From: a plasmid
Sequence record: NZ_CP084013.1
Strand: one strand, 5' to 3'
DNA: 64,000 nt
Positions 11,836 to 64,000 of the stretch are shown piece by piece. A program made the position numbers and the translations under genes. Position 1 is the first letter of the stretch. Every line of letters begins with the position of its first letter. The notes beneath the pieces are model-generated. The model was not told where the DNA came from and searched no databases. It saw only the letters and a program-made list of their open reading frames with translations.

Positions 11836-13144
11836 GGCCGTTAGGATTCGGCTCGACCCAACCCCACGGCAGACACGGCTGTTGGAATCCCATGCGGGCG
11901 GCGCGCGTTTCGCATACAATCTGATGCTCGCTCACGTCCAGCGCCAAATCTCCTTGGGTGAGAAACCGGACTGGACGTTGTACGCGATGCGCCGCTGGTG
12001 GAACGAGTGGAAGGACGAAATCGCCCCGTGGTGGCGGGAGAACAGCAAGGAGGCGTACAACAGCGCGTTTGAATGGCTGTCCCAAGCGTTGAGGAACTGG
12101 TCGGACAGCAGGAAGGGCAGGCGCGCGGGCCGCAGGGTGGGCTGGCCGAAATACAAGTCGAAACGCTCCGGTGTCCCGCGTTTCGCATACACGACCGGCA
12201 GCTTCGGCCTTATCGAGGACGACCCGAAGGCGTTGAAACTGCCACGCATCGGACGCGTGCACTGCATGGAGAACGCCACCGAACGCGTCCACGGCAGACG
12301 AATCGTGCGCATGACCGTCAGTCGCCATGCGGGCTTCTGGTATGCGGCCCTCACCGTCGAACGTCCCACCGAAAGCGTTCCCGCGAAAAACAGAAAACAG
12401 AAGAACCGTAATCGTCAGGTCGGCGTGGATTTGGGCGTCAGGACCCTCGCCACCCTCTCGGATGGCACCACGTTCCCCAATCCACGCAACTACGTCCGCA
12501 TGCAACGGAAACTCCGCCACGCCCAACAGGCGTTAAGCCGCCGCGACAGGGGCATGAGCCATGGATGCGGGTCGAAACGGTACAACAGGGCGTTGGGGCG
12601 CGTGCGCCGAATCCACGCCCGCATAGCCGCCCAACGAGCCGACAACATCAGCAAGCTCACCACGTGGCTCGCCGACAATTATTCCGACATCAGCATCGAA
12701 GACCTCAACGTGCAAGGCATGAGCCATAACAGGAGGCTTGCCAAACACATACTGGACGCGGACTTCCACGAGTTCCGCCGCCAACTGGAATACAAGACCG
12801 CACGCGCCGGCACGAGGCTCCATGTCATCGACCGCTGGTATCCAAGCTCGAAGACCTGTTCGAACTGCGGGACGGTGAAAGCCAAACTGCCCCTGTCCGA
12901 ACGCGTCTACCATTGCGGCAAGTGCGGACTTGTCATCGACCGTGATGTGAACGCGGCCATCAACATCCAAGTCGCCGGGAGTGCCCCGGAGACGTTAAAC
13001 GCGCGTGGAGGAAGCGTAAGACAGACCCGCCTTGAGTGCGGGACAATGCGGCATCCGGCGAAACGCGAACCAAGCGGCGGCGACAGTCGCGTGAGACTTG
13101 GAGCTGGTCTCGGCAACGAGGCCATGCAGATGACTCCGCTCTAG
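11822..13144 (+). CDS. tnpB: TnpB (OrfB) RuvC-like RNA-guided endonuclease homolog
   Basis: VGVDLGV (RuvC-I). IEDLNVQGM (RuvC-II Glu). Zinc finger CSNCG...CGKCG. DRDVNAAINI (RuvC-III). Confidence 0.85.
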   Translation: MSAYEAVRIRLDPTPRQTRLLESHAGGARFAYNLMLAHVQRQISLGEKPDWTLYAMRRWWNEWKDEIAPWWRENSKEAYNSAFEWLSQALRNWSDSRKGRRAGRRVGWPKYKSKRSGVPRFAYTTGSFGLIEDDPKALKLPRIGRVHCMENATERVHGRRIVRMTVSRHAGFWYAALTVERPTESVPAKNRKQKNRNRQVGVDLGVRTLATLSDGTTFPNPRNYVRMQRKLRHAQQALSRRDRGMSHGCGSKRYNRALGRVRRIHARIAAQRADNISKLTTWLADNYSDISIEDLNVQGMSHNRRLAKHILDADFHEFRRQLEYKTARAGTRLHVIDRWYPSSKTCSNCGTVKAKLPLSERVYHCGKCGLVIDRDVNAAINIQVAGSAPETLNARGGSVRQTRLECGTMRHPAKREPSGGDSRVRLGAGLGNEAMQMTPL

Positions 13145-32220: not shown

Positions 32221-32808
32221 ATGAAGTTGTCGGAGTACGCGGCCAAGCATGGCATCCAGTATCGTGCCGCTTGGAACCGGTTCAAGGCGGGGAAGATTCC
32301 CGGCGCTTGGCAGGACGAGTCGGGGACGATAATCGTGCCCGACGAGACGCAGGCGCGCCTGAACGACGCCGCCGTGTACGCCCGTGTCTCCGACCCGTCG
32401 AAACGCAAGACCCAACTGCCCGCGCAGCAGAAGCGTGTGGAGGATTGGGCCATCGCCAATGGTTATCGGGTGGTCGCGTCCGTGTCCGAGGTCGGTTCTG
32501 GGGTGAACGACAAGCGTCGCCGTCTGTCCGCGTTGCTGAAGCGCGATGATTGGGGGACGCTCATCGTGGAGCACAAGGACAGGCTGACCCGGTTCGGGTT
32601 TGAATGGTTCCGTCTGTTCATCGAACAGCAGGGGCGTCGCATCGTGGTCATCAACGAGGCGGGCGACGACCGGGCGGACTTGGCGCAGGATTTGGTGAGC
32701 ATCATCTACTCGTTCAGCGCCCGCCTGTACGGGCAACGGCGTTCCAAACGCGCGGAGGCCATGGTCCGCATCGTGGAGGATGGTGAGCGCGATGCCGTCC
32801 AAGCGTAA
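32221..32808 (+). CDS. tnpA: IS607-family TnpA serine recombinase
   Basis: YARVSDPSKRKTQL. GSGVNDKRRRLSALL. MerR-like N-terminus. Confidence 0.75.
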   Translation: MKLSEYAAKHGIQYRAAWNRFKAGKIPGAWQDESGTIIVPDETQARLNDAAVYARVSDPSKRKTQLPAQQKRVEDWAIANGYRVVASVSEVGSGVNDKRRRLSALLKRDDWGTLIVEHKDRLTRFGFEWFRLFIEQQGRRIVVINEAGDDRADLAQDLVSIIYSFSARLYGQRRSKRAEAMVRIVEDGERDAVQA

Positions 32809-34243
32809 CGTCTCCTATCATGCGTACAACGCGGCCAGTCCGATGAACAATCGGAAGCTCGCGGAGTTCGACTGTCTGTTGCCGGTATGGCGTCGCGGCC
32901 TCGTGTTTGCAATGGGCGGTTGGACGCGCGTATTGACATCCGGCGGGGAGCTGCCCCGTTGGATGGATACTAAGAGTTTCCCCGGCTGGCTGTCCCAGCG
33001 CCAGTGGGATTCCGTGACGCGTCAGGCCAAAGGCGCGTTGGATTCTTGGATGGAACTCAGGGAGACCGAGTTTCGCCGCGTCGTCAACGGCAGTAGTCTA
33101 AGCCCGGACATGAAGCGGGAACTGTACGACATCAACCGGCGGCATGAATGGTGGAAGCCGGAGGATGATGAGGCTCACCGCATGGCGCGGCGCATCATCA
33201 AACACCTGCGCAAACAAGTCCCGTTCCCCCGCATGGGACGTTGCCGGACGATGAGCATGGACGGGAAGATAGCCCGAGTCGAGGATGCCATGAACGCCGT
33301 CCATTATCGTTGGTGGGTCACGGTCAGCACCTTGGACAGGGGGCGTCCGATTCGCATCCCGATAATCGCCGACCCCCGGTTGGAAGAGAATCTGGCGGTC
33401 AACAACGAGACCTTGGCGAATCATCTGCAAGCCACCCACACCCCGGAGGAGGGGTGGACGTTCCATGTGATGACCACCAGCCCGAAGGCCACGCCCAGAC
33501 GGACGGGCGAGATTATCGGCGTTGACTGGGGAGTGCAAAGCCTGTTCGCCACCAGCGACGGGCGACTCTTGGGACTCGGACTGTACGCATGGCTGTCGGA
33601 ACGCGACGTGGAACTCGAAACGCTCACCAAGGAGCTGAACCGTAGCCATATCCCCTGCCGGGAATCGAAACGTTACCGTCGGTTGAACAAACGAATACGC
33701 GACCATGTGACCAACGAGACCAACCGGCTGCTCAACCGGCTGGGCGAACAGGACATCAAGGAAATCGTCGTAGAGGAACTCGACTTCCGCCACGGCGGAC
33801 TCACCCGCAGGATGAACCGCATCGTCAGCCGTGCGGGACGCAACGCGGTCAAGCGCAAACTCCAAGACCTGCAAGACAACAAGGGCGTCACCGTCACCAA
33901 AGTCAACCCCGCATACACATCGCAGGAATGTCCGAACTGCGGATGCACCGACCCGCGCAACCGCAAAACCAGAGACCTGTTCCGCTGCATCTGCTGCGGA
34001 TACACGCTTCATGCCGACATCAACGCCAGCCGCAACATACGTGCGAGACGTTCTCGCAGGGATGGATGGCGTTTCATCGGCAGGAAGCAAATCCTCGCCA
34101 CGCTCCGCAACGAGCACGGTGAGCGATGCTCCCGCCCCGACCATCATCGGGACGGGAGACACGTCGCCAAGAGTGCGACTACCCCACGGAACGCGAAAAC
34201 GTCACCGGAGGTCAAAGCTCCTAACGGAATAAAAAACCATTAG
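32792..34243 (+). CDS. tnpB: TnpB RuvC-like RNA-guided endonuclease homolog
   Basis: IIGVDWGVQ. VVEELDF. CPNCGC...CICCGY. HADINASRNI. Confidence 0.8.
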   Translation: MPSKRNVSYHAYNAASPMNNRKLAEFDCLLPVWRRGLVFAMGGWTRVLTSGGELPRWMDTKSFPGWLSQRQWDSVTRQAKGALDSWMELRETEFRRVVNGSSLSPDMKRELYDINRRHEWWKPEDDEAHRMARRIIKHLRKQVPFPRMGRCRTMSMDGKIARVEDAMNAVHYRWWVTVSTLDRGRPIRIPIIADPRLEENLAVNNETLANHLQATHTPEEGWTFHVMTTSPKATPRRTGEIIGVDWGVQSLFATSDGRLLGLGLYAWLSERDVELETLTKELNRSHIPCRESKRYRRLNKRIRDHVTNETNRLLNRLGEQDIKEIVVEELDFRHGGLTRRMNRIVSRAGRNAVKRKLQDLQDNKGVTVTKVNPAYTSQECPNCGCTDPRNRKTRDLFRCICCGYTLHADINASRNIRARRSRRDGWRFIGRKQILATLRNEHGERCSRPDHHRDGRHVAKSATTPRNAKTSPEVKAPNGIKNH

Positions 34244-43795: not shown

Positions 43796-43867
43796 TTTGC
43801 AGTTGTTGTGTTTGCGGTCGAATGCGGCTATAATTTATTTTACATATTATGATTGGAGGTGTTTGGT

Positions 43868-44491
43868 ATGCGCACGTATCTTCGGAGGGCCGAGGCGGCG
43901 AACCGTCTGCACATATCGACCACCGCGTTCAAAACGCTCGTAGCCGAGGGGAAAATCAAATACGAGCTGTCGCCCGGCGGGCAGAAGGTGTATGACCCGA
44001 AGGAAATCGACCGTTTCGCCGCCCGCGTTCAGGGTAGGGAGCCGGCGGAAGGCGTTCTCGTGTTCTACGTGCGGGACAGCGAGGGCAACACGACGCGAAT
44101 GAGAAATCAGGAGGAGCGGCTAGAGAAGGCGTATGGCGCTCCGTCAAAAGTGTACCGCGACCGCGCCTCCGGATTGAATGAGAACCGCAAGGGACTGGCA
44201 CGACTGCTCGACGACGCGGAGGAGGGACGTTTCGACCGGGTGGCCGTCACCGCCAAAGACAGGTTGAGCAGGTTCGGCGCATCTTATCTACAACGGCATC
44301 TCGCGTTCCTCGGCATCGACCTGATTGTGTTGGACGGGGAACGGGAGAAGGGGATGATGGACGAACTCATGGACGACTTCATGGCTTTGCTCGCCTCGTT
44401 CTCCGGACGGTTCTACAAGCTGCGCAGCATCGAACATGAGAAACTGCTGCTCGACCGGGCGCGCGAAAGACTGGAGGAGCGTGGAGCATGA
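43868..44491 (+). CDS. tnpA: IS607-like TnpA (serine recombinase family, divergent catalytic region)
   Basis: VLVFYVRDSEGN. RASGLNENRKGLARLL matches GSGxxxxRxxLxxLL of the other two TnpA. GGAGGT RBS. Confidence 0.55.
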   Translation: MRTYLRRAEAANRLHISTTAFKTLVAEGKIKYELSPGGQKVYDPKEIDRFAARVQGREPAEGVLVFYVRDSEGNTTRMRNQEERLEKAYGAPSKVYRDRASGLNENRKGLARLLDDAEEGRFDRVAVTAKDRLSRFGASYLQRHLAFLGIDLIVLDGEREKGMMDELMDDFMALLASFSGRFYKLRSIEHEKLLLDRARERLEERGA

Positions 44492-46146
44492 AAACCGGTG
44501 AAATCGCCTGCGCTGTTCCAGACCTGCACGACTACCGTCTATACGACCACAGGACAGGCGAACCGTTGGACCCGGTGGAGGCCGAAACGCTGCTCTGGCT
44601 GCACTTGGACCATTGCCGGCAATGCCAGAACCGGATGATTCACGACCCGAGGAACCGGAATCTCAAACGGGGCGGAAATGCTGGGAGAGGCAACGAATGG
44701 GCGAGGAAGAACGTCGCCTGCACAAGCCTGCCCTCCAAGTTCAGAAACCTCTCCCATCAGAACCGCGTCAATCAGACCGAGGCCGCCCGACTGCTCCTCG
44801 CATGGCGGGAACGCGAGGACATCGCCACCGCAATCGACGCCATCGGCTGGGAGAAGGCCACCTACGGGAACGTGCAGAAACGTTTGAGCCGGGACATCGA
44901 CCGTGAACTGTTCACGAACGTGCTCAACAGCGGCGGTCATCCAAGCCTGCCCACCGTGGAGCGCACGCAGTTCCCCTACGCGTACTCGAACAACAACTCC
45001 TGCGGCATGTACGTCATCGACCAGCCCGCCGGGGTCATCCGATACGAGCGGATGGCCGTCTACGACAGGTTCGTGGACGTTGAGATATACGCGCCGCACA
45101 TCATGCGCCTGCATCCGAACCTGACGAAGGTGTCCCGGCCCACGCTACGGTGGAACGGGGACTGCGTGACATGGGATGTCATCGTCTTCGAACCAAAACC
45201 CCGCAAAGAGGATGTGAACAAGGTGAGCCACGTCGTCGGCTTCGACCTGAACGCCGACTGGCATGGTGGCATCAGCGGGGCGCGACTCTCCTACAACGGG
45301 ACGGTGAGCCGAGAACTCGTAGCCGGCATCGACACACGCCGCCAGCAAACCGTGTTGGAGGAGCTGTATGTCCAATACCAGCGGTGTTTGAAGAAGCTCG
45401 ACCGGCTCATGCCATGGCAGCGGCCACACGACCCGGACGACCCGCAGCAAGTGGCAGCCCACCCCGAATGGCGGCGACTCTACGAACAGTCGCTCAACCT
45501 CCGGGATAAGATGTACCGCATCAAAACCCTGTTGGACTGGCGGTACGCGCACGACATCACCGACCATGCCAAACCCGGCGAACTCATCGCCGTGGAGAAA
45601 CTTTCCCCGTTCGATGCGGCAGGACGCGTCGAGTTCCGGCACGGCAGCCAACTGGAAAAACTGGAACACGTCGCCTCCAAGACCGGACAGCGCGTGGTGC
45701 AGGTCAACCCGGCGCACACGTCCGCCACCTGCCCGTGGTGCGATACCGTCAACAAGGTCGGCAAAGCCAGACAATACCGGTGCGCAGGATGCAGACGTGA
45801 CATCCCCCGCGACTACGGGTCTGGCGTCAACATCGCCAAACGCGGCGCACGCTATCTCGGACACAAAAACGTCCGACCTACCCCGCCGAAGGGACACGCC
45901 ACACCCAAACGTCCACCGGTCAGACACAAACGACCGGACGAAAAAACACGAGAACTTCTCACACAGATAACGTCAGGAACCGGCAAGGGGCCGGAATCCT
46001 TATGGGCCAAGACCACTCCACTGGAATGGCACATCCCATCGACGGCGACTATCGAGAATACAAGGAACCGACTAGCCCTCGCAAACCAGCGAGACCGGGC
46101 AGCAACGGGGTTACGGCAGAAACCGCAACCACCCCATTCTCGATAA
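44488..46146 (+). CDS. tnpB: TnpB-like RuvC nuclease (552 aa)
   Basis: VVGFDLNAD. LIAVEKLS. CPWCD...CAGC. RDYGSGVNIA. Confidence 0.7.
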   Translation: MKTGEIACAVPDLHDYRLYDHRTGEPLDPVEAETLLWLHLDHCRQCQNRMIHDPRNRNLKRGGNAGRGNEWARKNVACTSLPSKFRNLSHQNRVNQTEAARLLLAWREREDIATAIDAIGWEKATYGNVQKRLSRDIDRELFTNVLNSGGHPSLPTVERTQFPYAYSNNNSCGMYVIDQPAGVIRYERMAVYDRFVDVEIYAPHIMRLHPNLTKVSRPTLRWNGDCVTWDVIVFEPKPRKEDVNKVSHVVGFDLNADWHGGISGARLSYNGTVSRELVAGIDTRRQQTVLEELYVQYQRCLKKLDRLMPWQRPHDPDDPQQVAAHPEWRRLYEQSLNLRDKMYRIKTLLDWRYAHDITDHAKPGELIAVEKLSPFDAAGRVEFRHGSQLEKLEHVASKTGQRVVQVNPAHTSATCPWCDTVNKVGKARQYRCAGCRRDIPRDYGSGVNIAKRGARYLGHKNVRPTPPKGHATPKRPPVRHKRPDEKTRELLTQITSGTGKGPESLWAKTTPLEWHIPSTATIENTRNRLALANQRDRAATGLRQKPQPPHSR

Positions 46147-48223: not shown

Positions 48224-49345
48224 ATGCAGGTGAAACGTCATTGCGCGGTCAAGTACCGCATGTACCCGAACAGGGCTCAGGCGGCATTGATTGACCGCAC
48301 CATCGGTTGTGCGAGGTTCATCTACAATCAGATGCTTGAAACCCGCATCGGCACCTATAAGGCTACGGGTAAGTCGTGCAATCCGACTCCCGCCCAGTAC
48401 AAGGACAGGTATCCGTTCCTGCGTGAGGTGGACAGCCTCGCACTGTGCAACGCCCAATTGAACGTGGCGAAGGCGTACAGGAACTTCTTCCGCGACCCCA
48501 AGCACATCGGCTTCCCGAAGTACAAGGCGAAGCATCGCAATCGTCAGACCTACACGACGAACAACAGCAATAACAACGTCACCCTCGATGAAGGAGGCAG
48601 GCATCTCAAACTACCGAAAGTAGGGATTGTGCGCGTCCGCCAGCATAAACGCATACCCGAAGACTGGAAACTGAAGAGCGTGACCATCGAGCATTGCAAA
48701 AACGGCGAATACACGGCGACGATACTGTTCGAGTACGAGACCCAAGCACTCGAACCCGTCCGACCCGTGCATATCGTCGGATTGGATTACTCCTCCCACG
48801 GCCTGTACGTGTCCAGCGACGGCGAACGAGCCGACTATTCGCGTTTCTACCGGCGGATGGAGCCACGGCTGATGCGCGAGCAACGTAGACTCAGCCACAT
48901 GGTAAAAGGGTCCGGTAATTGGGTGAAACAGAAGCGGCGCATCGCCAAGCTCGCCGCCAAGGTCGGGAACCAGCGAGCCGACTTCCTGCATAAGACGGCC
49001 AACCGGCTCGCCGCCCGATATGATTGCGTCGGCGTGGAGGACTTGGACATGAAGAACATGAGCCAATCCCTCACACTCGGCAAAAGCACGATGGACAACG
49101 GGTACGGCATGTTCCGCACCATGCTCGCATACAAGCTCGAACGGCAAGGCAAGCAGCTGGTCACGGTAGACAGGTTCTACCCGTCCAGTCAACTATGCTC
49201 CGATTGCGGATACCGCAATAAGGATACGAAGGACCTGCATATCCGCGAATGGACATGCCCTGACTGTGGCGTTTGGCATGACAGGGACGTGAACGCCGCG
49301 ACCAACATCATGCACGAAACACGACGACTCATGCAGGAACGATAA
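48224..49345 (+). CDS. tnpB: TnpB RuvC-like RNA-guided endonuclease homolog
   Basis: IVGLDYSS. GVEDLDMKNM. CSDCGYRN...CPDCGVWH. DRDVNAATNI. Confidence 0.85.
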   Translation: MQVKRHCAVKYRMYPNRAQAALIDRTIGCARFIYNQMLETRIGTYKATGKSCNPTPAQYKDRYPFLREVDSLALCNAQLNVAKAYRNFFRDPKHIGFPKYKAKHRNRQTYTTNNSNNNVTLDEGGRHLKLPKVGIVRVRQHKRIPEDWKLKSVTIEHCKNGEYTATILFEYETQALEPVRPVHIVGLDYSSHGLYVSSDGERADYSRFYRRMEPRLMREQRRLSHMVKGSGNWVKQKRRIAKLAAKVGNQRADFLHKTANRLAARYDCVGVEDLDMKNMSQSLTLGKSTMDNGYGMFRTMLAYKLERQGKQLVTVDRFYPSSQLCSDCGYRNKDTKDLHIREWTCPDCGVWHDRDVNAATNIMHETRRLMQER

Positions 49346-50398: not shown

Positions 50399-50428
50399 CC
50401 CGACCATTGCGGTCGGGATATTTTTTTT
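50399..50428 (+). terminator. Rho-independent terminator
   Basis: cccgacc ATTGC ggtcggg followed by atatTTTTTTTT. Confidence 0.7.
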
Positions 50429-50470
50429 GGATATCGCCACCAACCGAAAAACGGGTATTTTCAATAGAAT

Positions 50471-50500
50471 ATCGGTTAATAACAACATCAAAATCTATCG
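50471..50500 (+). promoter_or_regulatory. Conserved ATCGGTTAATAACAA element upstream of the transfer ATPase gene
   Basis: The same 15-mer recurs at 62582 upstream of the large membrane-protein gene, and a partial copy lies at 62560. Confidence 0.35.
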
Positions 50501-50508
50501 TGGAATAT

Positions 50509-53500
50509 ATGCCACGAGGAAACTTCTACCGTCCAGAAAGCTTTATAAGCCCGGCCAGCGAATACGGGCTGCTCCGTTCTGCCACGCCGGATCGCACCGT
50601 ATGGCTGTACGCGCGCATCCCCTGGAGCACTGCATTGCTGGATGGAGCCAACGACCGGAAACGCAACGATGCCGCGCAACAGCTGATGGCGTTCTTCGAC
50701 GGCCTCGCCAATCAGGTCACGGTTGCCGGTATGCGCTACCGTTACATGCTTCAAAGCGAATATCGCGAATTCCATCTACTCACCGGATCCATGCCCGTCC
50801 GATACAGTCCGCCGGCCAGCATGAGGGACACCGACCTCGGACGATACCAGGCGCAGTACTACCGTAGCCAGAAGGTATGCAAGCAGTTCGCGGTCATCGG
50901 CGTTCCTTTGAAACTGGTCGGGGATCATAGCAACAATCGCAAGCCCGGCATGCTGCAACGCGCCCTGACATGGTACGACCGCATGTGCTATTCGGTGGCA
51001 AACGGATGCCCAATGTTCGAAGAGTATCTGCCAGACGCGCATAATATCGAACGAATCATGCTCAACGCCGGGCTGGAACCATTCACCATCATGGATGAGC
51101 AGGAACGCGAACAGCTGGTCGCCATGATGGAATCATGGTGGGTGGGGCGCGCCAACTCGTCGGCCCTGCCTATCCTGGCGGAGAACGCACACGTGCATTT
51201 CTTCCCGGATAACGCGACCTGCGCCCACGCCAAAAACCTGTACGACAATGGCGTGGACTGCACCGAGTGGAATATCGACGAAGAATACCCGGCCAGCATC
51301 TGCTTCGCACGCACGGCGGATTTCAACCAAAGCAGCATCACGGATCCAAACAACCTGTGGATTGCTAGACTCATGGAAGTCGGACGAGCCGGCGGAGCCA
51401 ATGCGGTCGCCACAAGCATCCGAGGCAAAGTCGAACCGGCGAAAGTCACCGCCGACCAGATTCGACGCAACAGCCGCACCATCGACGAAAGCATTAAGGA
51501 ACGGTACGAGAAAGGCCATGAAGCCCCCGGTGATATGACCGAAATCAAGGAGCGTTTGGATTATAAGAAGGCAATCTACAATACTCCGGACATGCCGCCC
51601 AGCATCATTGATCTGAGCGTCGCCACCTGCGTGGCGGGCAACGAGCAGATGGCCATCGACGCTTTGGGGTGTATCCCCAACATCGAGTTCGTCAATCTGA
51701 CGACGGCTAGCGAACAGTTGATGGCGTTCAAAAGCATGCAGGCCTGTTCGAACGTACGCATGACCCCCTATGAGATCCACTGGGCCGCAACATGCGTCGC
51801 GGGAGGAGGCGTGAGCAGTTTCGCCAAAGCAGGCGACAGGGACGGAGCTCTTGTCGGATTGTCCGAAGCCAACAGGCAACCGGTGTATATCGGGACAACA
51901 ACCGTGCAGGACAAGGACAGGCGTCCAATTTTGGCTATTATCGGAGATACAGGAAGCGGGAAGGCCGTTCACATTTCCTCCACAATTCCGGTTCCCCCTC
52001 AGGCTAGCTTCCCCCATGGAAAAATGGCTAAGATCAGCGATTTGCATGAGGGAGACCTCGTCTACGGGCGGGACGGAAAACCTTATCCACTCCTCAAGCT
52101 TCATCCGATTCACACGGAAGATCTTTACGAAGTCACCCTCAGTGACGGTCAAACGATAAAAGCCAGCGGGAACCACCAGTGGATCGTCTCCGATTTCAAA
52201 GATCGAAACAAATTCAGAAAACCAAAACATTTGAAATCCCAACAGCGTAAGAACATGCTGTCGGAGACATACGATGAGCTATGTCGGATGTCTGATGCGC
52301 TACCGGCCCAATCAACCATGAGCGTGAACGAGCTTGCAGAGTTTGTCCATCCAGTAACGAGTCGTTGGTGGAGCGGAGAGAGCAATGCCAAGACCATTGC
52401 CGCAGCGCTGCGATTTATGGGAGTTGAATCTCATCAAGAACAGCGAGACCGCGCGATAGCGGATACAAAAAAACCTTTTAAGACTCGGCAGAACTGTAGG
52501 CGCTATAACACGCAGGAAGCTCTTCGGGCTTTGATTGCACATTATGATGGCGTGGCGCAGCATGCGAAAAGATGGAACGATCTCGCCAGGGAGCGTGCGG
52601 ATGTCCTAAGAAAGCATTTGGAAGATAACTATCCGAAGGGCATCAGCATCACTGACATACAGAAGATGCTCGAGGATCGTTCACCAAGCCGTTCCTCTAT
52701 CGCATCTGTCATAAAAACGCTCAATCCAATCAGTGAGTGGGATACGGAAGAACGAATTCACTCCGACAGAATGCGTCATGATTCGGTATCCGTATACAAC
52801 GTTCGAGAAGCATGCAGAGCCATAGGGCAACGCATGATGCTTCGTTATGAGGGGGCCTTCAACGAGACCAATTCCCTTGGATATTGTGAACAGGTTGTGA
52901 CTACGCGAGACATGCTTGCGTCTGGTCTAAAGGATTCAGGCAATCGTGCGCAATGGGCAATCCGAGCCGCGATGCCTGTTGCCAACCCGCAAGCCGACCT
53001 GCCACTTGACCCATGGGTTTTAGGGGCTTGGTTAGCCGACGGTAGTATCGGCACTGGAATCATCGCTTCAGATAACAGGAATGGTGATTTGCAGCATGTG
53101 AAGTCCTGTCTCACCTCTGCGGGATTTTCTCTAGGAAGCATCAATACGCCGATGGTCGTGAATGTGAAGGGGCTTGTCTCCATTCTTCGCGATATGGGGA
53201 TACTCCGCGAAAAACGCATTCCTGAGATCTACTTCTCGGCGAGCATCGAGCAAAGACTCTCCCTCGTGCAGGGGTTGCTGGATCAGGATGGGACCATCTC
53301 CTCAAATGGGAATATAGAGTTCACCCAGTCCGCCGATCATCTGCCGATTGTCCGAGGAATGGTGCGCCTGCTGAGATCTCTGGGAATCGTCGTTCACGAA
53401 CCCCATCTCAACAAAGCAGGATACACGGCTGATGGTGTGCGTCACGAGGCTCAGGATCGTTATCGCATCACCTTCACGACGGATCTGCCGGTATTCTCTT

Positions 53501-54828
53501 TGCAACGCAAAGCGGCTTTAATCCCTACGACGTTGAGACAAACCCAGCAATGGCTATACGTCAAAGACATCAGGAAGATATCCAACGCGCCTCATCGTTG
53601 TCTGACCGTTGGAAGCCCTGACCATTCGTTCCTCATCGCTGATTACGTGCCGACCCATAATACGATGGCGGCGTTCAGCCTGTTTCTGCAATGGTCGAAG
53701 ATTGACGCGCGTGACGGTAAAGGCAAGACCCCGTGCATTTACATTAATCCGAAGGCCGGTAATGATTTGGAGGATGCGACCCGTTCGCAGGGTGGTACGG
53801 TCATCCGGTTGGATTCCGATGTGGCCAACGGCACGTTCGACCCGTTCAACGTGATTCCGAATGTGGAGGAGGCCAAGGAAATCGCCGTCCTGATGATGAC
53901 GAACATTCTTGGCGGTGACACAAAGATGGAATCCGCCATGACAGCCATGCTGGATTACGGCGTCAAACACGGGGCGCGTTACGTAGGCCGGGCTCTGCTT
54001 GTCGCCGCCCAAGCTGTTGCGAAGACCATCAAAGCGGGGAACACGGCGGAGTCCATTGGGTTGCCTTCCAACACCCTCGAGGTGTTTTCGACAATCAGCA
54101 TGAACCTGAAGGCGAACCAGGGACTACGTCTTATCTTCGGCACCGATAATGACACCAAGCCGTTGACGATCAGCCAAAACCTGACCCTCATCAATGCCGG
54201 AGACCGTTCACTCATCCCCGAAGGCCAAGATGATTCCATGACCGCTCGCATCCGCCAGTGGACGTTGCGAATGGTCGTCATGGGAGCCGGCACCGCCGTT
54301 CGAGGCCGCGATGGCATGGTAGGTGTCGATGAGGCATGGGTGTTCATGGGCAAGGACAAGGGAGCTTCCCGAACCTTCGAACAATGGGTGCGTATGGCCC
54401 GTTCGCAACGATTCACGCCTGTCATCATCAGCCAGAAAGTGCAGGAGTTCATCGATGCCGACTTGACCGGAGGTATCAGCCGCGCCCTCCTTCTGGCGTT
54501 GGACAACCCGGAAGAAGCCAATGGCACGGTCAGTCCGGCCAAATCAGCGGAACGACTCCTAGGCATCGAAGACCCCAATGGTCGGATCTTGCAGCGCATG
54601 GGAGCCGATGATACTTTGGACAACGGTCAGCCGAACCCGAACAGTCTGAAGCGCCTGGTAAGCGCATCGACGAGGAAGACCGTTCGCGGAGCCGTCGCCT
54701 ATTTCAAAGACGGGTCCAAGCAGCCTATTCCAGTGGAAATCGTGATTCCTCCGGCATTGTTGAAGGAAATCAGCACCACTGCCACGGACAAGATCGCACG
54801 AGAACAACGAAAGAACAAGGAGCAGTGA
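50509..54828 (+). CDS. VirB4/TraC-like conjugative transfer ATPase interrupted by an intein
   Basis: P-loop GDTGSGK|...|TMAAF. Walker B VGVDEAWVF. The roughly 566-aa insertion has Hint and LAGLIDADG features. The mature protein would be about 873 aa. Confidence 0.6.
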   Translation: MPRGNFYRPESFISPASEYGLLRSATPDRTVWLYARIPWSTALLDGANDRKRNDAAQQLMAFFDGLANQVTVAGMRYRYMLQSEYREFHLLTGSMPVRYSPPASMRDTDLGRYQAQYYRSQKVCKQFAVIGVPLKLVGDHSNNRKPGMLQRALTWYDRMCYSVANGCPMFEEYLPDAHNIERIMLNAGLEPFTIMDEQEREQLVAMMESWWVGRANSSALPILAENAHVHFFPDNATCAHAKNLYDNGVDCTEWNIDEEYPASICFARTADFNQSSITDPNNLWIARLMEVGRAGGANAVATSIRGKVEPAKVTADQIRRNSRTIDESIKERYEKGHEAPGDMTEIKERLDYKKAIYNTPDMPPSIIDLSVATCVAGNEQMAIDALGCIPNIEFVNLTTASEQLMAFKSMQACSNVRMTPYEIHWAATCVAGGGVSSFAKAGDRDGALVGLSEANRQPVYIGTTTVQDKDRRPILAIIGDTGSGKAVHISSTIPVPPQASFPHGKMAKISDLHEGDLVYGRDGKPYPLLKLHPIHTEDLYEVTLSDGQTIKASGNHQWIVSDFKDRNKFRKPKHLKSQQRKNMLSETYDELCRMSDALPAQSTMSVNELAEFVHPVTSRWWSGESNAKTIAAALRFMGVESHQEQRDRAIADTKKPFKTRQNCRRYNTQEALRALIAHYDGVAQHAKRWNDLARERADVLRKHLEDNYPKGISITDIQKMLEDRSPSRSSIASVIKTLNPISEWDTEERIHSDRMRHDSVSVYNVREACRAIGQRMMLRYEGAFNETNSLGYCEQVVTTRDMLASGLKDSGNRAQWAIRAAMPVANPQADLPLDPWVLGAWLADGSIGTGIIASDNRNGDLQHVKSCLTSAGFSLGSINTPMVVNVKGLVSILRDMGILREKRIPEIYFSASIEQRLSLVQGLLDQDGTISSNGNIEFTQSADHLPIVRGMVRLLRSLGIVVHEPHLNKAGYTADGVRHEAQDRYRITFTTDLPVFSLQRKAALIPTTLRQTQQWLYVKDIRKISNAPHRCLTVGSPDHSFLIADYVPTHNTMAAFSLFLQWSKIDARDGKGKTPCIYINPKAGNDLEDATRSQGGTVIRLDSDVANGTFDPFNVIPNVEEAKEIAVLMMTNILGGDTKMESAMTAMLDYGVKHGARYVGRALLVAAQAVAKTIKAGNTAESIGLPSNTLEVFSTISMNLKANQGLRLIFGTDNDTKPLTISQNLTLINAGDRSLIPEGQDDSMTARIRQWTLRMVVMGAGTAVRGRDGMVGVDEAWVFMGKDKGASRTFEQWVRMARSQRFTPVIISQKVQEFIDADLTGGISRALLLALDNPEEANGTVSPAKSAERLLGIEDPNGRILQRMGADDTLDNGQPNPNSLKRLVSASTRKTVRGAVAYFKDGSKQPIPVEIVIPPALLKEISTTATDKIAREQRKNKEQ
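51964..53661 (+). other. Intein with a LAGLIDADG homing-endonuclease domain, inserted in the P-loop of the transfer ATPase
   Basis: Block B SGNHQW. Two LAGLIDADG motifs (LGAWLADGSIG and LVQGLLDQDGTIS). C-terminal block FLIADYVPTHN followed by extein Thr. Lower GC than the host gene. The N-terminal boundary (Ala after GSGK) is tentative. Confidence 0.6.
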
Positions 54829-55661: not shown

Positions 55662-56963
55662 TTGAAAACCAGTACAAAACTCATGGCTGCGGGAGCCGCA
55701 TTGCTGGTGGGGTTGAACGGTCTTATCGTCATGAACGTGGTGAGTGCCGTTTCCGGCAGTGTCGCGGCCCTTACCAGCAACGTCGGAAAGTCATTATCAG
55801 CCGCAGAATATGATTGCGGCACCTCATCAGATGATGATTCGACAACCGGGACCACATCGATAGCCCCCAACAAGGTCGCGGTGGCCATAGCCGAGGCATT
55901 CGCCAAAGCCGGGTATTCGAAAGCCAGCACGGCAGGCGCTCTTGGTGTGATCCAATTCGAATCTGGGATGAATCCGGAACAGGAGCAGATAGGAGAGACC
56001 AATCCCGCATTGCGTGGCTTCGGTCTGAATCAGTGGACACCGCGCAGCAAAATCCAAGCATGGATGGATCAGCATAACGTGTCTGGCAAAGACTCTGATG
56101 CCGACGTGCAGATAAAAATGCTGGTTGACACGTCCGAATCCGATTGGAACAACTTCTATCTGGATAACATCGAGGCCGAAGGGTACAACGTCACCGACCA
56201 TGACCTGCACAAATGGTGGCTGCATGCGGATAATCCGGAGGACGCCTCAATCGCATGGCTTGCCGGGTATGGGCGCGGAGCGTGGAACGATCGGCATGAA
56301 GAGGAACGTAAGAAATATGCGCGCTCCTACTATGATTCACCGGAGATTAGTGCGATCGAGTTCACTGGGAAGGCAAGCGACGATTCCCGTGGTTCCGACA
56401 ATGTCGTTCAAGCTTCCTGCTCATCCGACGACGATGGTGATGGAGGCAGTGCCGTCGTAGGTTCTGTGGGCGGGGCTCCTATAGGCAAAACCCGTAATTT
56501 TGGCTGGCTGTGCGATACGGATGCAAAAGTGTGTCACGACGGGGACTACGGACCATTCACTTCCTTCGCCAGCGGCGGACATTACCAGTGCTACTGGTAT
56601 GCACTTGTCAGACTATGGGTGATTCACCATCATGACGTGGCAAACTGGAACACCCCCGTGGGTGGTGACGTCCATGTGCATCTCGCCTCCGACCCTGCAT
56701 ACACAGTCGATTCCAGTCCACACCCGGGGGATGGCGTCAGTCAGTTCGGCGGTGCTTTGGGAGGTGATATGAGCTCCGGGCATATCGCCGTGGTCGAAGA
56801 AGTCAAGCAGGACGCAAACGGATGGAGAATCCGAATCAGCGAGGGAAACTACGGCACGAACGGAAGCGGCCCATGGGAGGGGTACAACAGTCGCTGGCTC
56901 ACGCAAAAGCAGTTCGATGGCGCCGGCAACGTGTTCTTCCGGAAGAAAAGCTGGAAGAACTAG
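55662..56963 (+). CDS. Bifunctional secreted cell-wall hydrolase: N-terminal lysozyme-like domain plus C-terminal CHAP domain (TcpG/VirB1-like)
   Basis: Signal/TM segment. STAGALGVIQFESGMNPEQE...GFGLNQWTP (phage-tail-lysozyme-like). C-terminal HYQCYWYAL (CHAP Cys) and SGHIAVVEEV (CHAP His). Confidence 0.55.
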   Translation: MKTSTKLMAAGAALLVGLNGLIVMNVVSAVSGSVAALTSNVGKSLSAAEYDCGTSSDDDSTTGTTSIAPNKVAVAIAEAFAKAGYSKASTAGALGVIQFESGMNPEQEQIGETNPALRGFGLNQWTPRSKIQAWMDQHNVSGKDSDADVQIKMLVDTSESDWNNFYLDNIEAEGYNVTDHDLHKWWLHADNPEDASIAWLAGYGRGAWNDRHEEERKKYARSYYDSPEISAIEFTGKASDDSRGSDNVVQASCSSDDDGDGGSAVVGSVGGAPIGKTRNFGWLCDTDAKVCHDGDYGPFTSFASGGHYQCYWYALVRLWVIHHHDVANWNTPVGGDVHVHLASDPAYTVDSSPHPGDGVSQFGGALGGDMSSGHIAVVEEVKQDANGWRIRISEGNYGTNGSGPWEGYNSRWLTQKQFDGAGNVFFRKKSWKN

Positions 56964-58634: not shown

Positions 58635-59945
58635 CTATCTGGATGGTTTGCGCCGCCAATAGTCATGCACCGGATGCCCATCACGATCGTGGGAGACGAC
58701 ATGCACCATGCCATTGTCGGGAAGGACGAAGCGTTGAGGACTTGGCATGCCACTGTTCGCGACACGAATCTTGTCCAACAGCTTGGCCTGCAGTTCCGGG
58801 GCCAGATCCATATACGCAGTATGCGCATTCAACCGGACCAAGTCGCTGATGCGGATAGCCTCGTCTCGTGCAGTGTCGGAATCGAATCCACAATAATCAG
58901 CCAACCTCGCATAATGGTCCGGCGTCACTTCACTGGCATGCTCCGCTCCTGAGAATGGCATCGCGAGCTTGTCCGTCAACCCCGGCCATACAGTCGTGGT
59001 CATCACATCGTATGCTGGGCTTAGTTTCCAGGACTCACCATCCAGCGAAGTAGGCATGACTGAATAGTTACGGGCATGCGCATCGCAATTATCGACAGCC
59101 ACGTTGAAGGCCAATCGTCGCAGCCACTCCTCCCCCAGTCTGCCGGACGGATCCATCTTCCGTAGGGTGGTCAGCGTATCGACGGCACTCACCTTGTACT
59201 TCTCGGATGATGGTAGGCCCAATGCCTGCACCATATCCTCCATCGGCAGACGAACCGGCATACCATTTTCGATACGACGATCGAACCGTTCCACGATATA
59301 GGTCTGCTGGCCGTTGAATTCCTGGATATCCGACTCCGGGGTTTCGATGCCGACCATCTTGGAAAGCATCATGGTCGCATGTTCTACTTCATCAGCGTCA
59401 TAAATGCCGGCCGGTTTAAGAATATGAGTCGACGGAACGGCGCCATTGGGCCACACCCATTCATCGCCTACACGGGACAAGGAGAATTTGCCTTGAGCTC
59501 CTGCCAAGGAAAATCTGGCACCTTTGTTCCTGACGAACCATGAATCAGGCGTCCGTTTGACGGCGGCAATACGTGTCGCGATTTCGTCATCGGTTGCTTC
59601 TGCAGGAGGCACACTGGCAATAGTCGGCATCTCATCGTTCCGAGAGAACACCAGCGCACCAGCTGAATCCACGTTTTCCAGCAAGTCGAAGGATTCCTGA
59701 GATTTCGCGCCGACTGCCTGCATCATGGCATACTTGGCGGCACCTGATTCCGGGAGTAAATTTTCTAGAAAATTCTCCGGTGCATCCTCGCGCCACTCTC
59801 CATCTTTCGGGAGGCTGAAACTTATCCGTGGAGCATTCCAATCATACTCAAACGCGACTCCTCGTTTGAGAGAGGTGAACACGCCAACGTGGGAGCCGTT
59901 CATCCAGACGTTTAGCCGATCACCTTTTCTCATGCCACCACGCAT
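58635..59945 (-). CDS. hipA: HipA-family Ser/Thr kinase toxin
   Basis: FSLAGAQGKFSL. VERFDRR. Catalytic DNCDAHARNYSVM. The true start may be Met5 (59933). Confidence 0.7.
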   Translation of the reverse strand: MRGGMRKGDRLNVWMNGSHVGVFTSLKRGVAFEYDWNAPRISFSLPKDGEWREDAPENFLENLLPESGAAKYAMMQAVGAKSQESFDLLENVDSAGALVFSRNDEMPTIASVPPAEATDDEIATRIAAVKRTPDSWFVRNKGARFSLAGAQGKFSLSRVGDEWVWPNGAVPSTHILKPAGIYDADEVEHATMMLSKMVGIETPESDIQEFNGQQTYIVERFDRRIENGMPVRLPMEDMVQALGLPSSEKYKVSAVDTLTTLRKMDPSGRLGEEWLRRLAFNVAVDNCDAHARNYSVMPTSLDGESWKLSPAYDVMTTTVWPGLTDKLAMPFSGAEHASEVTPDHYARLADYCGFDSDTARDEAIRISDLVRLNAHTAYMDLAPELQAKLLDKIRVANSGMPSPQRFVLPDNGMVHVVSHDRDGHPVHDYWRRKPSR

Positions 59946-60895: not shown

Positions 60896-61945
60896 TCAGC
60901 CCAACAAAACCCGCGACACCGCCCCCTCATCAGGCAACCCGGAATCCAACAATTCAGCCAAACGCGACGCAACACGATCGGCATCAACACCGGTGAACAT
61001 GCCACCCATCCATTCGGACATCAGCGTCCGGACATGCTCGCAGTCGGCGGAATGCACGTGACGTGCGGGACCTTTGCTCTCATCCACTACTTCAGCCTCA
61101 AGGGGAATATCAGCCGACTCGCTCTGCGCAGTCTGTCGCGTTGGAGCATCGGTGCGAGGATAATACTTGATCCCATGCCTGAACGGTTCGGCCCTCAAAT
61201 TCGGAGCCGCCTCCAAGACATTCGACAACGCCTGTTTGAACCTGCGCCGGAAGTCCTTCATCGGCAGGCCGGTGCCCTCGAACTGGTCATACAGTTGACG
61301 CCATGAAACGTAGGCGACGTGGTCGAGCCGGTATGTGCGGTACGTCAACCATATATAGACGTCCAACGCCCGCGCCGATTTGCCCAGACGCGAGATGACA
61401 TCCATGCTGAGTGGGACGCTTGGCTTCGACAGCTCGGCCCACATCTCGTCCGTGAACTGGATTGACGCGATGATGTCCTGTTCTGGCCTGAACTGTGTAC
61501 GGCCTTTTCTGGCGACGGTGAACGGCGTGCATTCGCCTTTGTTCTCACGACTCTCGTCGGTGTTCATGATGGAGATCGAGGTTCGCGCCAAGTTCATCAG
61601 CGTGTCCTCCGTCTCTTTCTGACAGCCGGAGTGGTTGGATATTCCGGTGTTGTCGCAGAATTCCTGGAAGCTGCCACGAAAGACAACAGTGTGGGTGTCC
61701 TGATCCACGTCGGGATTGTTCTTCATGCGAATCATGGACTGCACGTAGAGGAATATCAGTCGCGGGGTTTTCCCGTAGACCCATTCCTCGGGGCGACTGG
61801 GGGTTATGCGGACTGTTTCCCGACCGTTCGTTCTCTCTATGTAGGATGAGCTTGGTTTCGACACGGGGAAGAGGGCGAGTTTCGCCATGAGCGGCGGTGC
61901 GCCCGTGTTCATTTTCGTTGTGGCGATGGCGTTATTATTGGTCAT
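60896..61945 (-). CDS. rep: Plasmid-type replication initiator protein (RepA-like)
   Basis: Winged-helix-like region SMDVISRLGKSARALDVYIWLTYRTYRL. The gene lies directly downstream of an iteron array. Confidence 0.6.
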   Translation of the reverse strand: MTNNNAIATTKMNTGAPPLMAKLALFPVSKPSSSYIERTNGRETVRITPSRPEEWVYGKTPRLIFLYVQSMIRMKNNPDVDQDTHTVVFRGSFQEFCDNTGISNHSGCQKETEDTLMNLARTSISIMNTDESRENKGECTPFTVARKGRTQFRPEQDIIASIQFTDEMWAELSKPSVPLSMDVISRLGKSARALDVYIWLTYRTYRLDHVAYVSWRQLYDQFEGTGLPMKDFRRRFKQALSNVLEAAPNLRAEPFRHGIKYYPRTDAPTRQTAQSESADIPLEAEVVDESKGPARHVHSADCEHVRTLMSEWMGGMFTGVDADRVASRLAELLDSGLPDEGAVSRVLLG

Positions 61946-62619: not shown

Positions 62620-64000
62620 TGGCAAGCAGAAACAGCAGGAGCAGAACACAGACCCGTCCTATATCGAGTGGCGTCTGGTTTTCGCTGTTTCTTGTCTTTG
62701 GAATTATCCTCTGGTTCTTTTGGCGCCTGCCCTTGGTCCCGTTCCTTTGGCTTGGCATGCTCGCCGGAGGAATCACACAACAGTATCCGGTCAACGCTTC
62801 CGGAAGCCGCAAGGATCCCCCATCCGACAAGCAGATGATGGTCTACCACCGTTGGAAGGACATGCTTGCCGGTCTTATTCCGAATGCGGATTGGCTGGAG
62901 ATTCGTCGTGTTTCCTGGTGGATGGGCTGGATGGGCGGCATGCTGCTGGGATTGAACGGTGCCGTCTGGATTGCCCTGGTGGATGGCCTGTTCGGTTTCA
63001 TGCTCGCCCAAGGCTGGTCGCATTACAGGAATCGGCGCGTTGACCGTAGGCATGTCTACAAGGGCGTCAGTATTCCGGCGTTCCTGACCAAATCGCCCGC
63101 CTGGGCGCGGCTTTTGTCCGTCTCCATGGCGTTGCTGGTTTTCGCCGGGGTCCTGGTTTTCGTGTTGGCGGGATACATGAGCTGGCTGAGCGCTGTGACG
63201 CTTCCGGGGTTCGTGTTCCTGCTACTCGTATGGATGTTGGGGCGCAAACCGCAGTCCCGGTACTGGCGTGAGCTGGTCGAAGGGCAACAGCTGCTTGATG
63301 GTTGGCTTGCCGGGGACGATTTGCAGAAGGCATGGTCGGGAGCCTATCTGACGCAGGTCAACAAAATCGGTTCTTCGGATAATCCTCTGATCGTCTACCG
63401 GATTCGTCTGCAGGGGTCGGACGGTAAGCCTCGCTCGAACGAAGGAGTTTTCAAGCTCGGCGTGGAAGCGTTGCGGGCGCCGGCATTGGCGGACGGATAC
63501 CGTTTCGTGTGTCTACTGTCCGCCAAGCAGAAGAAGAAAGGGGCGGAACAGTTCGACCCGTCCAGTGTCCGTCTGGCGCTTGGCATGGACGAATCCTGCA
63601 TCCCCTCCATCGCGGAGAGAAAGGCCGGCGAAGGTCTTGCCTCTCTCGTCGCCGACATCGCCTATGCGCAAACCGCTTTCATCTGGCATAAACGCGCCCC
63701 GTTGACGTTGGCTCATGATGTGAGCGCCGACGAGAGCAAAGCCGCCTGGCTGTTGGAGATCATCACTCCCCCGCAGGGCGGGGATTCCATCGACCGCATC
63801 AGCTTCGACTGGCTGGAGGGAGAAGGATCTCCTGCCGAGACTCTGCGGATGCCGGTGTTCGCCGACCTGCAGGACAAGTTCCACCTGGTTGCATTCGACG
63901 ATGCGAAACTATCCGACAAGGGCAACAAGTGGCGGCCGGACGGCATGACCCACAAGAAAGCCTTTGACGATTACATCACCATTTCCAAACGGTTCAAAAG
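62620..64000 (+). CDS. Large polytopic membrane protein, 3'-partial (runs off the window). The ORF is absent from the supplied track because it has no stop.
   Basis: Manual translation from ATG 62620 shows no stop through 64000 (460 or more codons). Multiple TM segments are present (WFSLFLVFGIILWFFW, WMGWMGGMLLGLNGAVWIALVDGLFGFML, LLVFAGVLVFVLAGY...). Confidence 0.55.

Follow-up and report, generated by a model that had tools for sequence, protein, structure and literature searches.

The window analysed here comprises 64,000 nucleotides (nt) of a plasmid (sequence record NZ_CP084013.1) and carries a gene for a VirB4-like conjugation ATPase. In the reading that is favoured here, with a probability of roughly 85%, the P-loop of this ATPase is interrupted by a full-length class 3 intein with a LAGLIDADG homing endonuclease, and the plasmid is a Bifidobacterium longum megaplasmid of the pMP7017 family. 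A first-pass annotation, made from the letters alone, had placed a LAGLIDADG intein in the P-loop. Its insert coordinates, the flanking motifs GDTGSGK and TMAAF, the motif SGNHQW, two LAGLIDADG motifs and a terminal VPTHN followed by Thr were all found at the positions given, and the intein and LAGLIDADG signatures were recovered both by sequence and by predicted fold.

Position and boundaries of the insertion

The insert consists of exactly 566 in-frame codons (AVHISS...YVPTHN, plus strand, 51964–53661) and separates the Lys from the Thr of the Walker A motif, with GDTGSGK encoded at 51943–51963 and TMAAF from 53662. The translation of 51904–53721 reads ...ILAIIGDTGSGK / AVHISSTIPV ... ADYVPTHN / TMAAFSLFLQ..., where a slash marks a junction, as it does below. 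The open reading frame (ORF) of the host gene is uninterrupted over 4.3 kb and spans 50407–54828 on the plus strand in its long form. This form extends the gene by 34 codons upstream (50407–50508) to a TTG at 50407. Since the homologues and RefSeq begin at ATG 50509, the extension is probably untranslated, and the probable gene start is ATG 50509, which yields a protein of 1439 amino acids (aa), as in the homologue P0001 and in RefSeq entry WP_338715536.1. P0001 (1439 aa) is 100% identical to the protein of the window.

Homologues retrieved by a database search with the whole protein fell into two size classes of about 1330–1470 aa and about 850–910 aa. Almost all of those that were named, and almost all genome loci found later, came from Bifidobacterium and related Actinomycetota. 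An alignment of 20 of these sequences (A1) comprised eight intein-free and 12 intein-bearing members. The Walker A motif GxTGSGK[S/T]M was uninterrupted in all eight short homologues (850–909 aa), while all 12 long homologues were interrupted at the same K/[S/T] bond. In a second alignment (A2), 35 intein-free homologues of 850–909 aa showed a continuous GxTGSGK[S/T]M and lacked the insert. Scanning a genome collection with the single protein gave no match, and rescanning it with an alignment yielded eight loci. When the window was compared by blastn with the intein-free locus L010, the alignment stopped at 51953 and restarted at 53671, i.e., within about 10 nt of each end of the insert.

Because the intein-free homologues continue across this site and the DNA alignment to L010 breaks at the ends of the insert, the idea of a native domain is refuted and the junction is exact. 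Thus, the alignments confirmed the 566-aa stretch as an insertion, and the comparison with intein-free homologues that had been proposed as a check resolved a precise K/[S/T]M extein junction. The composition of the insert also differed from that of its host, as the first-pass annotation had stated: the GC content of the intein was 51.2% (54.6% at third codon positions), compared with 57.3% and 56.8% (70% and 69%) for the N- and C-exteins.

Assignment of the intein to class 3

Class 3 inteins are defined by a non-nucleophilic residue 1, Ser or Thr at position +1, and a co-varying Trp/Cys/Thr triplet at position 12 of block B, position 4 of block F and position 5 of block G, respectively (Tori et al. 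2010, PMC2807308). In class 2 (KlbA-like) inteins, a nucleophile at residue 1 is likewise missing, the triplet is absent and the +1 Cys attacks directly (PMC2807308).

The splicing blocks of the insert are SGNHQW (block B), RCLTV...SFLIA (block F) and VPTHN/T (block G). Residue 1 is Ala in the window and Ala, Leu, His or Glu across the alleles, i.e., never a nucleophile. His71, Trp73, Cys546, His565 and Asn566 are invariant in the 12 alleles, with inteins down to 42% identity. Thr564 is kept in 11 of them (Ser in the remaining one), and Thr follows the intein at +1 in all 12. A "mini" query containing only the N- and C-terminal Hint parts of the intein was aligned with class 3 inteins of solved structure, namely MchDnaB-1 (6rix; E 1.2e-8) and MsmDnaBi1 (6bs8; E 2.5e-6). 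These alignments pair SDGQTIKASGNHQW with SDGTVIVADAAHQW, PHRCLTVGSPDHSFLIA with PVRCVEVDNPAHLYLAG, and YVPTHN with MVPTHN; Trp73, Cys546 and Thr564 each fall on the Trp, Cys and Thr of both 6rix and 6bs8.

Taken together, these sequence features support assignment to class 3. Class 2 is excluded because the triplet is present and the +1 residue is Thr rather than Cys. The first-pass annotation had read the N-terminal junction as Ala and had suggested a class 2/3 intein if this was correct; Ala1 was borne out, and the triplet sharpens the assignment to class 3. The majority of class 3 inteins reside in ATPase P-loops (PMC2807308), so that P-loop insertion is the norm for this class. At the position found here, Thr+1 would serve both as the splice nucleophile and as the Ser/Thr residue of the Walker A motif.

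Predicted fold, endonuclease domain and middle region

The intein was modelled with AlphaFold2 on the alignment of the 12 alleles, and the model had a mean predicted local distance difference test (pLDDT) score of 86.8. Its best matches in the PDB by Foldseek were structures of PI-SceI (E of about 1e-14; template modelling (TM) score of about 0.62 on the target), while its N-terminal 75 residues matched class 3 DnaB inteins with 27–31% identity. The intein is thus predicted to combine a Hint fold with a PI-SceI-like LAGLIDADG fold of the alpha-beta-beta-alpha-beta-beta-alpha type. In the phmmer alignment, Asp359 and Asp442 fall on the Asp residues of the two LAGLIDADG motifs of PI-SceI, its catalytic residues D218 and D326. 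Of the 12 alleles, 11 keep both Asp359 and Asp442, and the intein matched the Pfam family Hom_end above its cut-off (E 3e-5).

In the remaining allele, P0019 (1328 aa), both LAGLIDADG Asp residues are gone (AWIASG, DVNG), as is a large part of the middle region, and HLW, RCLTV and VPTHN/T are retained. This allele looks like an intein heading toward a mini-intein. Since both motif Asp residues are lost in P0019, endonuclease decay does occur in this intein lineage.

The middle region (residues 85 to 308 approximately, about 220 aa) was specific to the VirB4 inteins, and non-allelic relatives matched the intein profile only at positions of about 17–90 and 308–565. No match to the middle region was found in Pfam or the PDB, and a search of 1.84 billion representative proteins returned only its own alleles. 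Its model was confident and largely helical with few hairpins. The region is partly deleted in the alleles P0007, P0012, P0019 and P0021, and a ratio of nonsynonymous to synonymous substitution rates (dN/dS) of 0.19 suggests that it is functional. It lies at the position at which PI-SceI has its DNA-recognition region; because of this shared position, an accessory DNA-binding part is a reasonable guess.

Mobility of the intein and selection on its parts

The window was compared with two related loci, L009 (a gut-metagenome locus syntenic with the window) and L013. Compared with L009, the DNA of the N- and C-exteins was 96.6% and 97.4% identical, while that of the intein was 58.3% identical (50% for the intein protein). 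In 60-nt segments, identity dropped from 93–100% over most of the exteins to 35–68% across most of the intein, with the drop centred on both intein boundaries. Extein mismatches were dense near the junctions: the 46 nt directly before the intein contain 13 and the 12 nt directly after it contain 3, whereas the background is about 2.5%. These clusters look like co-conversion tracts of double-strand-break repair.

The opposite pattern was observed with L013. Here, the exteins were 80.8% and 80.5% identical, with synonymous divergence (dS) of 1.22 and 1.29, whereas the intein was 89.2% identical (dS 0.42). In this comparison, dN/dS was 0.05–0.06 for the exteins and 0.11 for the intein, i.e., 0.05 for the N-terminal Hint part, 0.19 for the middle region, 0.09 for the endonuclease domain and 0.06 for the C-terminal Hint part. 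Every part of the intein is under purifying selection, and the intein is mobile independently of its host gene. Together, the L009, L013 and dN/dS results argue for a splicing-competent intein whose homing endonuclease is functional or was so very recently.

Regarding the insertion site itself, the +1 column of alignment A1, with Thr in all 12 intein-bearing sequences, holds Ser in six of the eight intein-free sequences, including P0018 of B. breve. The corresponding site of pMP7017 differs from the spliced site of the window at 33 of 72 nt, so pMP7017 may be a poor homing target.

The host ATPase and its plasmid

The C-extein matched Pfam AAA_10 above threshold (E 1.6e-8). For the host fold, P0017 was modelled with AlphaFold2 (pLDDT 86.5); this homologue has no intein and shares 74% and 85% identity with the N- and C-exteins of the window. 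The best PDB match of this model was full-length TrwK/VirB4 of R388 (E 3e-21, about 950 aligned columns); it also matched the VirB4 C-terminal domain of T. pseudethanolicus (4ag6; TM score 0.71), and its VirB4 matches outranked DndH, HerA and FtsK. The model shows the two-domain VirB4 architecture, with an N-terminal domain and a C-terminal RecA-like ATPase domain. In the Walker B motif VGVDEAW, the Asp-Glu pair is invariant in alignment A1. The earlier description of the host as a conjugative VirB4-like ATPase agrees with the AAA_10 match and with this fold match. Predicted fold, generic Pfam match and genetic context together support a VirB4-like conjugation ATPase.

The window shares 99.5% identity with megaplasmids of the pMP7017 family from B. 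longum, and its segment 49400–57000 shows 98.9–99.6% identity to four pMP7017-related B. longum plasmids of 184–198 kb. In plasmid pMP7017 of B. breve JCM 7017, the gene order is conserved, and the orthologue (B7017_RS00550) encodes 885 aa and has no intein. This plasmid is an experimentally conjugative bifidobacterial megaplasmid with relatives in 43 of 375 B. longum strains (PMC10832533).

Proposed mechanism

The proposed course of events is borrowed from the class 3 pathway established for the MP-Be DnaB, Dra Snf2, Msm DnaB-1 and Bvi IcmO inteins; splicing, cleavage of DNA and a part for the ATPase in transfer are all inferred. A precursor of 1439 aa would be translated with a split P-loop and would, because of this split, be inactive as an ATPase; the model for such inactivity is the P-loop intein of RadA (cited in PMC6195587). 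Cys546 (block F position 4), helped by Trp73 and His71, would attack the Lys(-1)-Ala1 bond and give a branched thioester intermediate. The N-extein would then be handed to the hydroxyl group of Thr+1, cyclisation of Asn566 would free the intein, and an O-to-N acyl shift would produce GDTGSGK-T, i.e., a whole Walker A motif (...IIGDTGSGK-TMAAFSLFLQWSK) in a VirB4-like protein of 873 aa. Since the unspliced precursor is taken to be ATPase-inactive, transfer of intein-bearing plasmids would depend on splicing.

The freed intein of 63 kDa would act as a site-specific endonuclease directed at alleles of this gene that lack the intein, which it could encounter, for instance, once conjugation has brought two megaplasmids together, and repair of the break would copy the intein into the cut allele (homing).

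Weighing of the evidence and of other explanations

Several observations weigh against this interpretation. An NCBIfam scan of the whole precursor gave no match to VirB4 or a related ATPase family, and the profile of the 35 intein-free homologues found no VirB4 or related ATPase among PDB sequences; the protein thus falls outside the curated VirB4 families and matches only the generic Pfam AAA_10. As neither a curated family nor a PDB sequence is matched and the call rests on the predicted fold, the host is termed "VirB4-like". Conjugation has been demonstrated in this plasmid family only for pMP7017, and because the allele of pMP7017 is intein-free, transfer of intein-bearing plasmids is putative. 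The intein scored 16 bits with Pfam Intein_splicing, compared with a cut-off of 35.8. At 566 aa with an orphan insert of about 220 aa, it is also far longer than the class 3 inteins of an actinobacteriophage survey (225–359 aa), and so large an insert could slow or compromise folding. The evidence for mobility comes from two pairwise comparisons and from a simple Nei-Gojobori estimate, with extein dS near saturation, and the mosaics could in principle have been made by general recombination rather than by endonuclease-driven homing. With respect to the profiles, the search proposed as a check on the first-pass annotation gave Hom_end above its cut-off and both Intein_splicing and LAGLIDADG_3 below theirs. 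Since the intein aligns directly and clearly with class 3 inteins of solved structure, the low scores of the latter two were treated as weak model coverage of class 3 inteins and not as counter-evidence.

Another explanation is a domesticated switch, in which oxidants or metal ions acting on Cys546 would make splicing conditional and thereby gate the transfer machinery post-translationally on a plasmid of an anaerobe. A comparable switch has been suggested for the class 3 intein in the P-loop of mycobacterial DnaB, and the intein described here shares insertion bond and class with MsmDnaBi1, whose splicing is reversibly inhibited by oxidative stress via the block F Cys (PMC6195587). Purifying selection on the whole intein and the abundance of intein-bearing alleles in public assemblies (the P0001 cluster has 3027 member sequences) would also fit. 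However, Cys546 is the only invariant one among the six cysteines of the intein, and because no second cysteine is conserved as a partner, a regulatory role finds no specific support. Moreover, the endonuclease is intact and the intein mobile, so selfish persistence suffices, and intein-free alleles are common, one of them functioning in pMP7017. Such a switch is therefore considered unlikely. An extended version is held to be improbable to the same degree: here, in a strict anaerobe of the gut, redox- or metal-conditional splicing at the exposed catalytic Cys546 would let the VirB4-like ATPase, and thereby megaplasmid transfer, operate under permissive conditions only, and the middle region would be an undescribed DNA-recognition module that widens the target specificity of the endonuclease for this plasmid gene.

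Still less probable is a decaying or splicing-dead insertion that leaves the ATPase inactive and the B. longum megaplasmids no longer self-transmissible, a fossil like the Arthrobacter Arth_1007 pseudo-intein. That pMP7017, the one family member with demonstrated conjugation, has no intein would agree with this, as would the loss of both LAGLIDADG Asp residues in P0019 and the middle-region deletions in several alleles. Against it stand the frame open over 4.3 kb, the retention of splice residues in alleles down to 42% intein identity, and the recent spread of the same intein lineage between diverged host alleles; in addition, strong purifying selection on exteins and Hint parts (dN/dS 0.05–0.06 for each) would be unexpected for a dead host protein. 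A class 1 or class 2 intein, with its start shifted to Ser5 or Ser6 of AVHISS or with direct attack by the +1 residue, is highly improbable. Class 2 inteins with Ala1 do exist (KlbA; PMC2807308), and Ser residues lie near the N-terminal junction, but the K/A...N/T boundaries are fixed by the intein-free homologues, a later start would leave four to five extra residues in the P-loop, and residues 1–6 vary across alleles. The conserved triplet, a defining feature of class 3 that class 2 lacks, and a +1 Thr instead of the class 2 Cys speak against it as well. A native accessory domain of the ATPase family, for which only the in-frame position could be cited, was rejected: 35 homologues of 850–909 aa with a continuous Walker A motif and the pMP7017 protein lack it, its composition is unlike that of the host gene, and its closest relatives lie inside unrelated ATPases. 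The full-length, splicing-competent class 3 intein with a homing endonuclease remains the preferred interpretation.

Genetic neighbourhood

Table 1. Coordinates of the intein, its host gene and neighbouring genes of interest in the window.
Feature	Position	Strand	Basis
VirB4-like conjugation ATPase precursor, host gene, 1439 aa including intein	50509..54828	+	ORF; start as in P0001/WP_338715536.1; Pfam AAA_10; fold match to TrwK/VirB4 (model of intein-free homologue)
N-extein, 485 aa, ending in GDTGSGK (51943-51963)	50509..51963	+	Alignment A1
Class 3 intein, 566 aa, Ala1 to Asn566	51964..53661	+	Alignments, conserved residues, fold
N-terminal half of Hint, residues 1-84; block B SGNHQW 52165-52182 (His71, Trp73)	51964..52215	+	27-31% identity to 6rix/6bs8, HQW on HQW
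Lineage-specific middle region, residues 85-308, mostly helical	52216..52887	+	
LAGLIDADG endonuclease domain; VLGAWLADG 53017-53043 (Asp359), VQGLLDQDG 53266-53292 (Asp442)	52981..53538	+	
C-terminal part of Hint; block F RCLTV (Cys546 53599-53601), block G VPTHN 53647-53661 (Thr564, His565, Asn566)	53539..53661	+	Aligned to PVRCVEV...MVPTHN of MchDnaB-1/MsmDnaBi1
C-extein, 388 aa plus stop; Thr+1 53662-53664; Walker B Asp-Glu 54328-54333	53662..54828	+	Alignment A1
Cell-wall hydrolase, lysozyme-like plus CHAP	55662..56963	+	Pfam Phage_lysozyme2 1e-22, CHAP 3e-9
FtsK/SpoIIIE-family ATPase, 5' part, coupling-protein-like, running off the window end	62754..64000	+	RefSeq of 99.5%-identical plasmid; Pfam FtsK_SpoIIIE on full-length orthologue; translation

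The coordinates of the intein, its host gene and two neighbouring genes are compiled in Table 1. The gene for the cell-wall hydrolase downstream of the ATPase gene is syntenic in all related loci, and hydrolases with lysozyme and CHAP domains are characteristic of conjugation modules in Gram-positive bacteria. Two minus-strand genes, for a HipA-family kinase toxin (58635–59945) and a RepA_C-family replication protein (60896–61945), separate the transfer genes from the FtsK-like gene. According to PMC8313286, the functional replicase of pMP7017 is RepB, not RepA.

Elements of the insertion sequence types IS200/IS605 and IS607 are dense in the window, with three TnpB-like ORFs in the regions 32780–34243, 43853–46146 and 48224–49345. 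One of these ORFs is preceded by a serine-resolvase gene (43853–44491). The tnpB gene at 48224–49345 lies 1.2 kb upstream of the ATPase gene, in a gene order as in NZ_CP146883.1. A "Transposase-2" RNA motif (Rfam RF03015, 84.8 bits) was located at 13060–13128, and no tRNA genes were found within the window.

MOB-suite typing in PLSDB lists NZ_CP146883.1, NZ_CP065398.1, NZ_CP065396.1, NZ_CP143940.1 and NZ_KM406416.1 as "non-mobilizable", a label that stands although pMP7017 conjugates experimentally. In RefSeq, the intein-bearing gene is named only "ATP-binding protein", and for P0014, the allele of B. callitrichidarum, the entire protein bears the label "LAGLIDADG family homing endonuclease". 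Automated typing and naming thus miss both the transfer system and the intein.

Significance

A literature search, whose scope stopped short of the original pMP7017 paper of 2015, revealed no earlier account of an intein in Bifidobacterium or in plasmids of the pMP7017 family, and no paper pairing a class 3 intein with conjugative elements was retrieved. The word intein is absent from the main pMP7017 transcriptome paper. The intein of the window is a new, well-supported case of a known type of element, atypically large and with clear ongoing mobility. It had escaped notice: the gene carries the RefSeq label "ATP-binding protein", and an intein is not mentioned in the megaplasmid literature searched.

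Megaplasmids of the pMP7017 type are reported from roughly one of every nine B. longum strains with a sequence (PMC10832533) and are the only known conjugative plasmids of bifidobacteria. In many of them, a key ATPase of transfer would need protein splicing before it can bind ATP, a circumstance that was previously unnoticed. The intein can be used as a marker of plasmid lineage and recombination, and it may be a point of control or of failure when the megaplasmids serve as genetic tools. It also provides a naturally occurring class 3 intein with room for a very large insert, as well as a clean natural case of intein turnover, in which two lineages with 58% identity occupy the same bond in genes that are 97% identical. 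In related Actinomycetota, the same protein offers a second insertion site. The understanding of inteins is left unchanged; the case is of interest to specialists for inteins and bifidobacterial plasmids, and unsurprising in principle.

Comparison with known inteins and conjugation ATPases

A search with the intein only first returned alleles in the same ATPase family and then inteins of terminase large subunits, FtsK, DnaB, PhoH, RuvB and Snf2-type helicases; a PD-(D/E)XK nuclease family and Cpn60 were also matched. Nearly all of these relatives share H-x-W in block B, a block F Cys and a THN that precedes Thr or Ser, and those with a visible N-terminal junction start directly after the "GK" of the P-loop. 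They form a broad, already described class 3 family that is tied to P-loops, phages and mobile elements.

In other Actinomycetota, the VirB4-like ATPase appears to be a two-site hot spot for inteins. Locus L004 (10001–15388, a Cellulomonas metagenome-assembled genome (MAG)) has two class 3 inteins, one in the P-loop (GATGSGK/LLKL...PTHN/T) and one 42 residues downstream, after the conserved "IIIDPK" (/AVTLD...IPTHN/TDSDH). Locus L008 (4996–8874, Isoptericola croceus) has the second-site intein only and an intact P-loop, while L005 (10001–14035, an Actinotalea MAG) has the P-loop intein only. The protein of the window reads INPK/AGND at the second site, where it carries no intein.

Class 3 inteins in P-loops are well characterised (PMC2807308, PMC5222942, PMC6195587, PMC7664689). 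The mycobacterial DnaB inteins (MsmDnaBi1, 6bs8; MchDnaB-1, 6rix; Mle DnaB) belong to the same class, with the Trp/Cys/Thr triplet, a non-nucleophilic residue 1 and Ser or Thr at +1. The flanks of Msm DnaB-1, FGVGK/STLGL (PMC5222942), mark the same Walker A Lys/Ser or Lys/Thr bond as GSGK/TMAAF here. The N-terminal Hint parts are 27–31% identical, and HQW, RC.xV and VPTHN are near-identical. However, the DnaB inteins are mini-inteins of about 130–145 aa that lack an endonuclease and interrupt a replicative helicase of the chromosome, whereas the intein of the window has 566 aa, an intact endonuclease and the orphan insert of about 220 aa and resides in a plasmid-borne VirB4-like ATPase. No conserved residue of the latter intein corresponds to Cys48, the redox partner in MsmDnaBi1.

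The DnaB intein of mycobacteriophage Bethlehem, which is the class 3 prototype, and the terminase and Cas4 inteins of actinobacteriophages are likewise full-length class 3 inteins with LAGLIDADG domains in the P-loops of mobile-element ATPases (PMC2807308; bioRxiv 10.1101/2025.01.02.630785). A phage origin has been proposed for class 3 inteins, and the nearest non-allelic relatives of the intein of the window were found in terminase large subunits, FtsK, DnaB and PhoH. The phage class 3 inteins differ in that they reside in phage proteins, are 225–359 aa long and have no middle region, in contrast to the 566 aa in a conjugation ATPase found here. PI-SceI of yeast VMA1 is 14–22% identical to the intein of the window and differs as a class 1 intein with Cys1 and Cys+1 in a eukaryotic V-ATPase.

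The first-pass annotation had called inteins in conjugation ATPases rare. They are indeed uncommon, but precedents exist. For type IV secretion system ATPases, a survey of 2016 listed five inteins in VirB4 (COG3451) of Firmicutes and Proteobacteria and 21 in archaeal VirB11 (PMC4760082). None of the earlier inteins in such ATPases was reported from Actinomycetota or Bifidobacterium; the five VirB4 cases are compared here by count, not by class or site. The other precedent is the IcmO intein of Burkholderia vietnamiensis, a plasmid-borne class 3 intein that was shown to splice (PMC5222942) and that resides, as here, in an ATPase of a secretion or conjugation system. It is, in contrast, a mini-intein of 142 aa in a coupling protein with Cys at +1, and its flanks ARSLGF/CITFA are not the P-loop junction GK/[S/T] that is interrupted in the megaplasmid ATPase.

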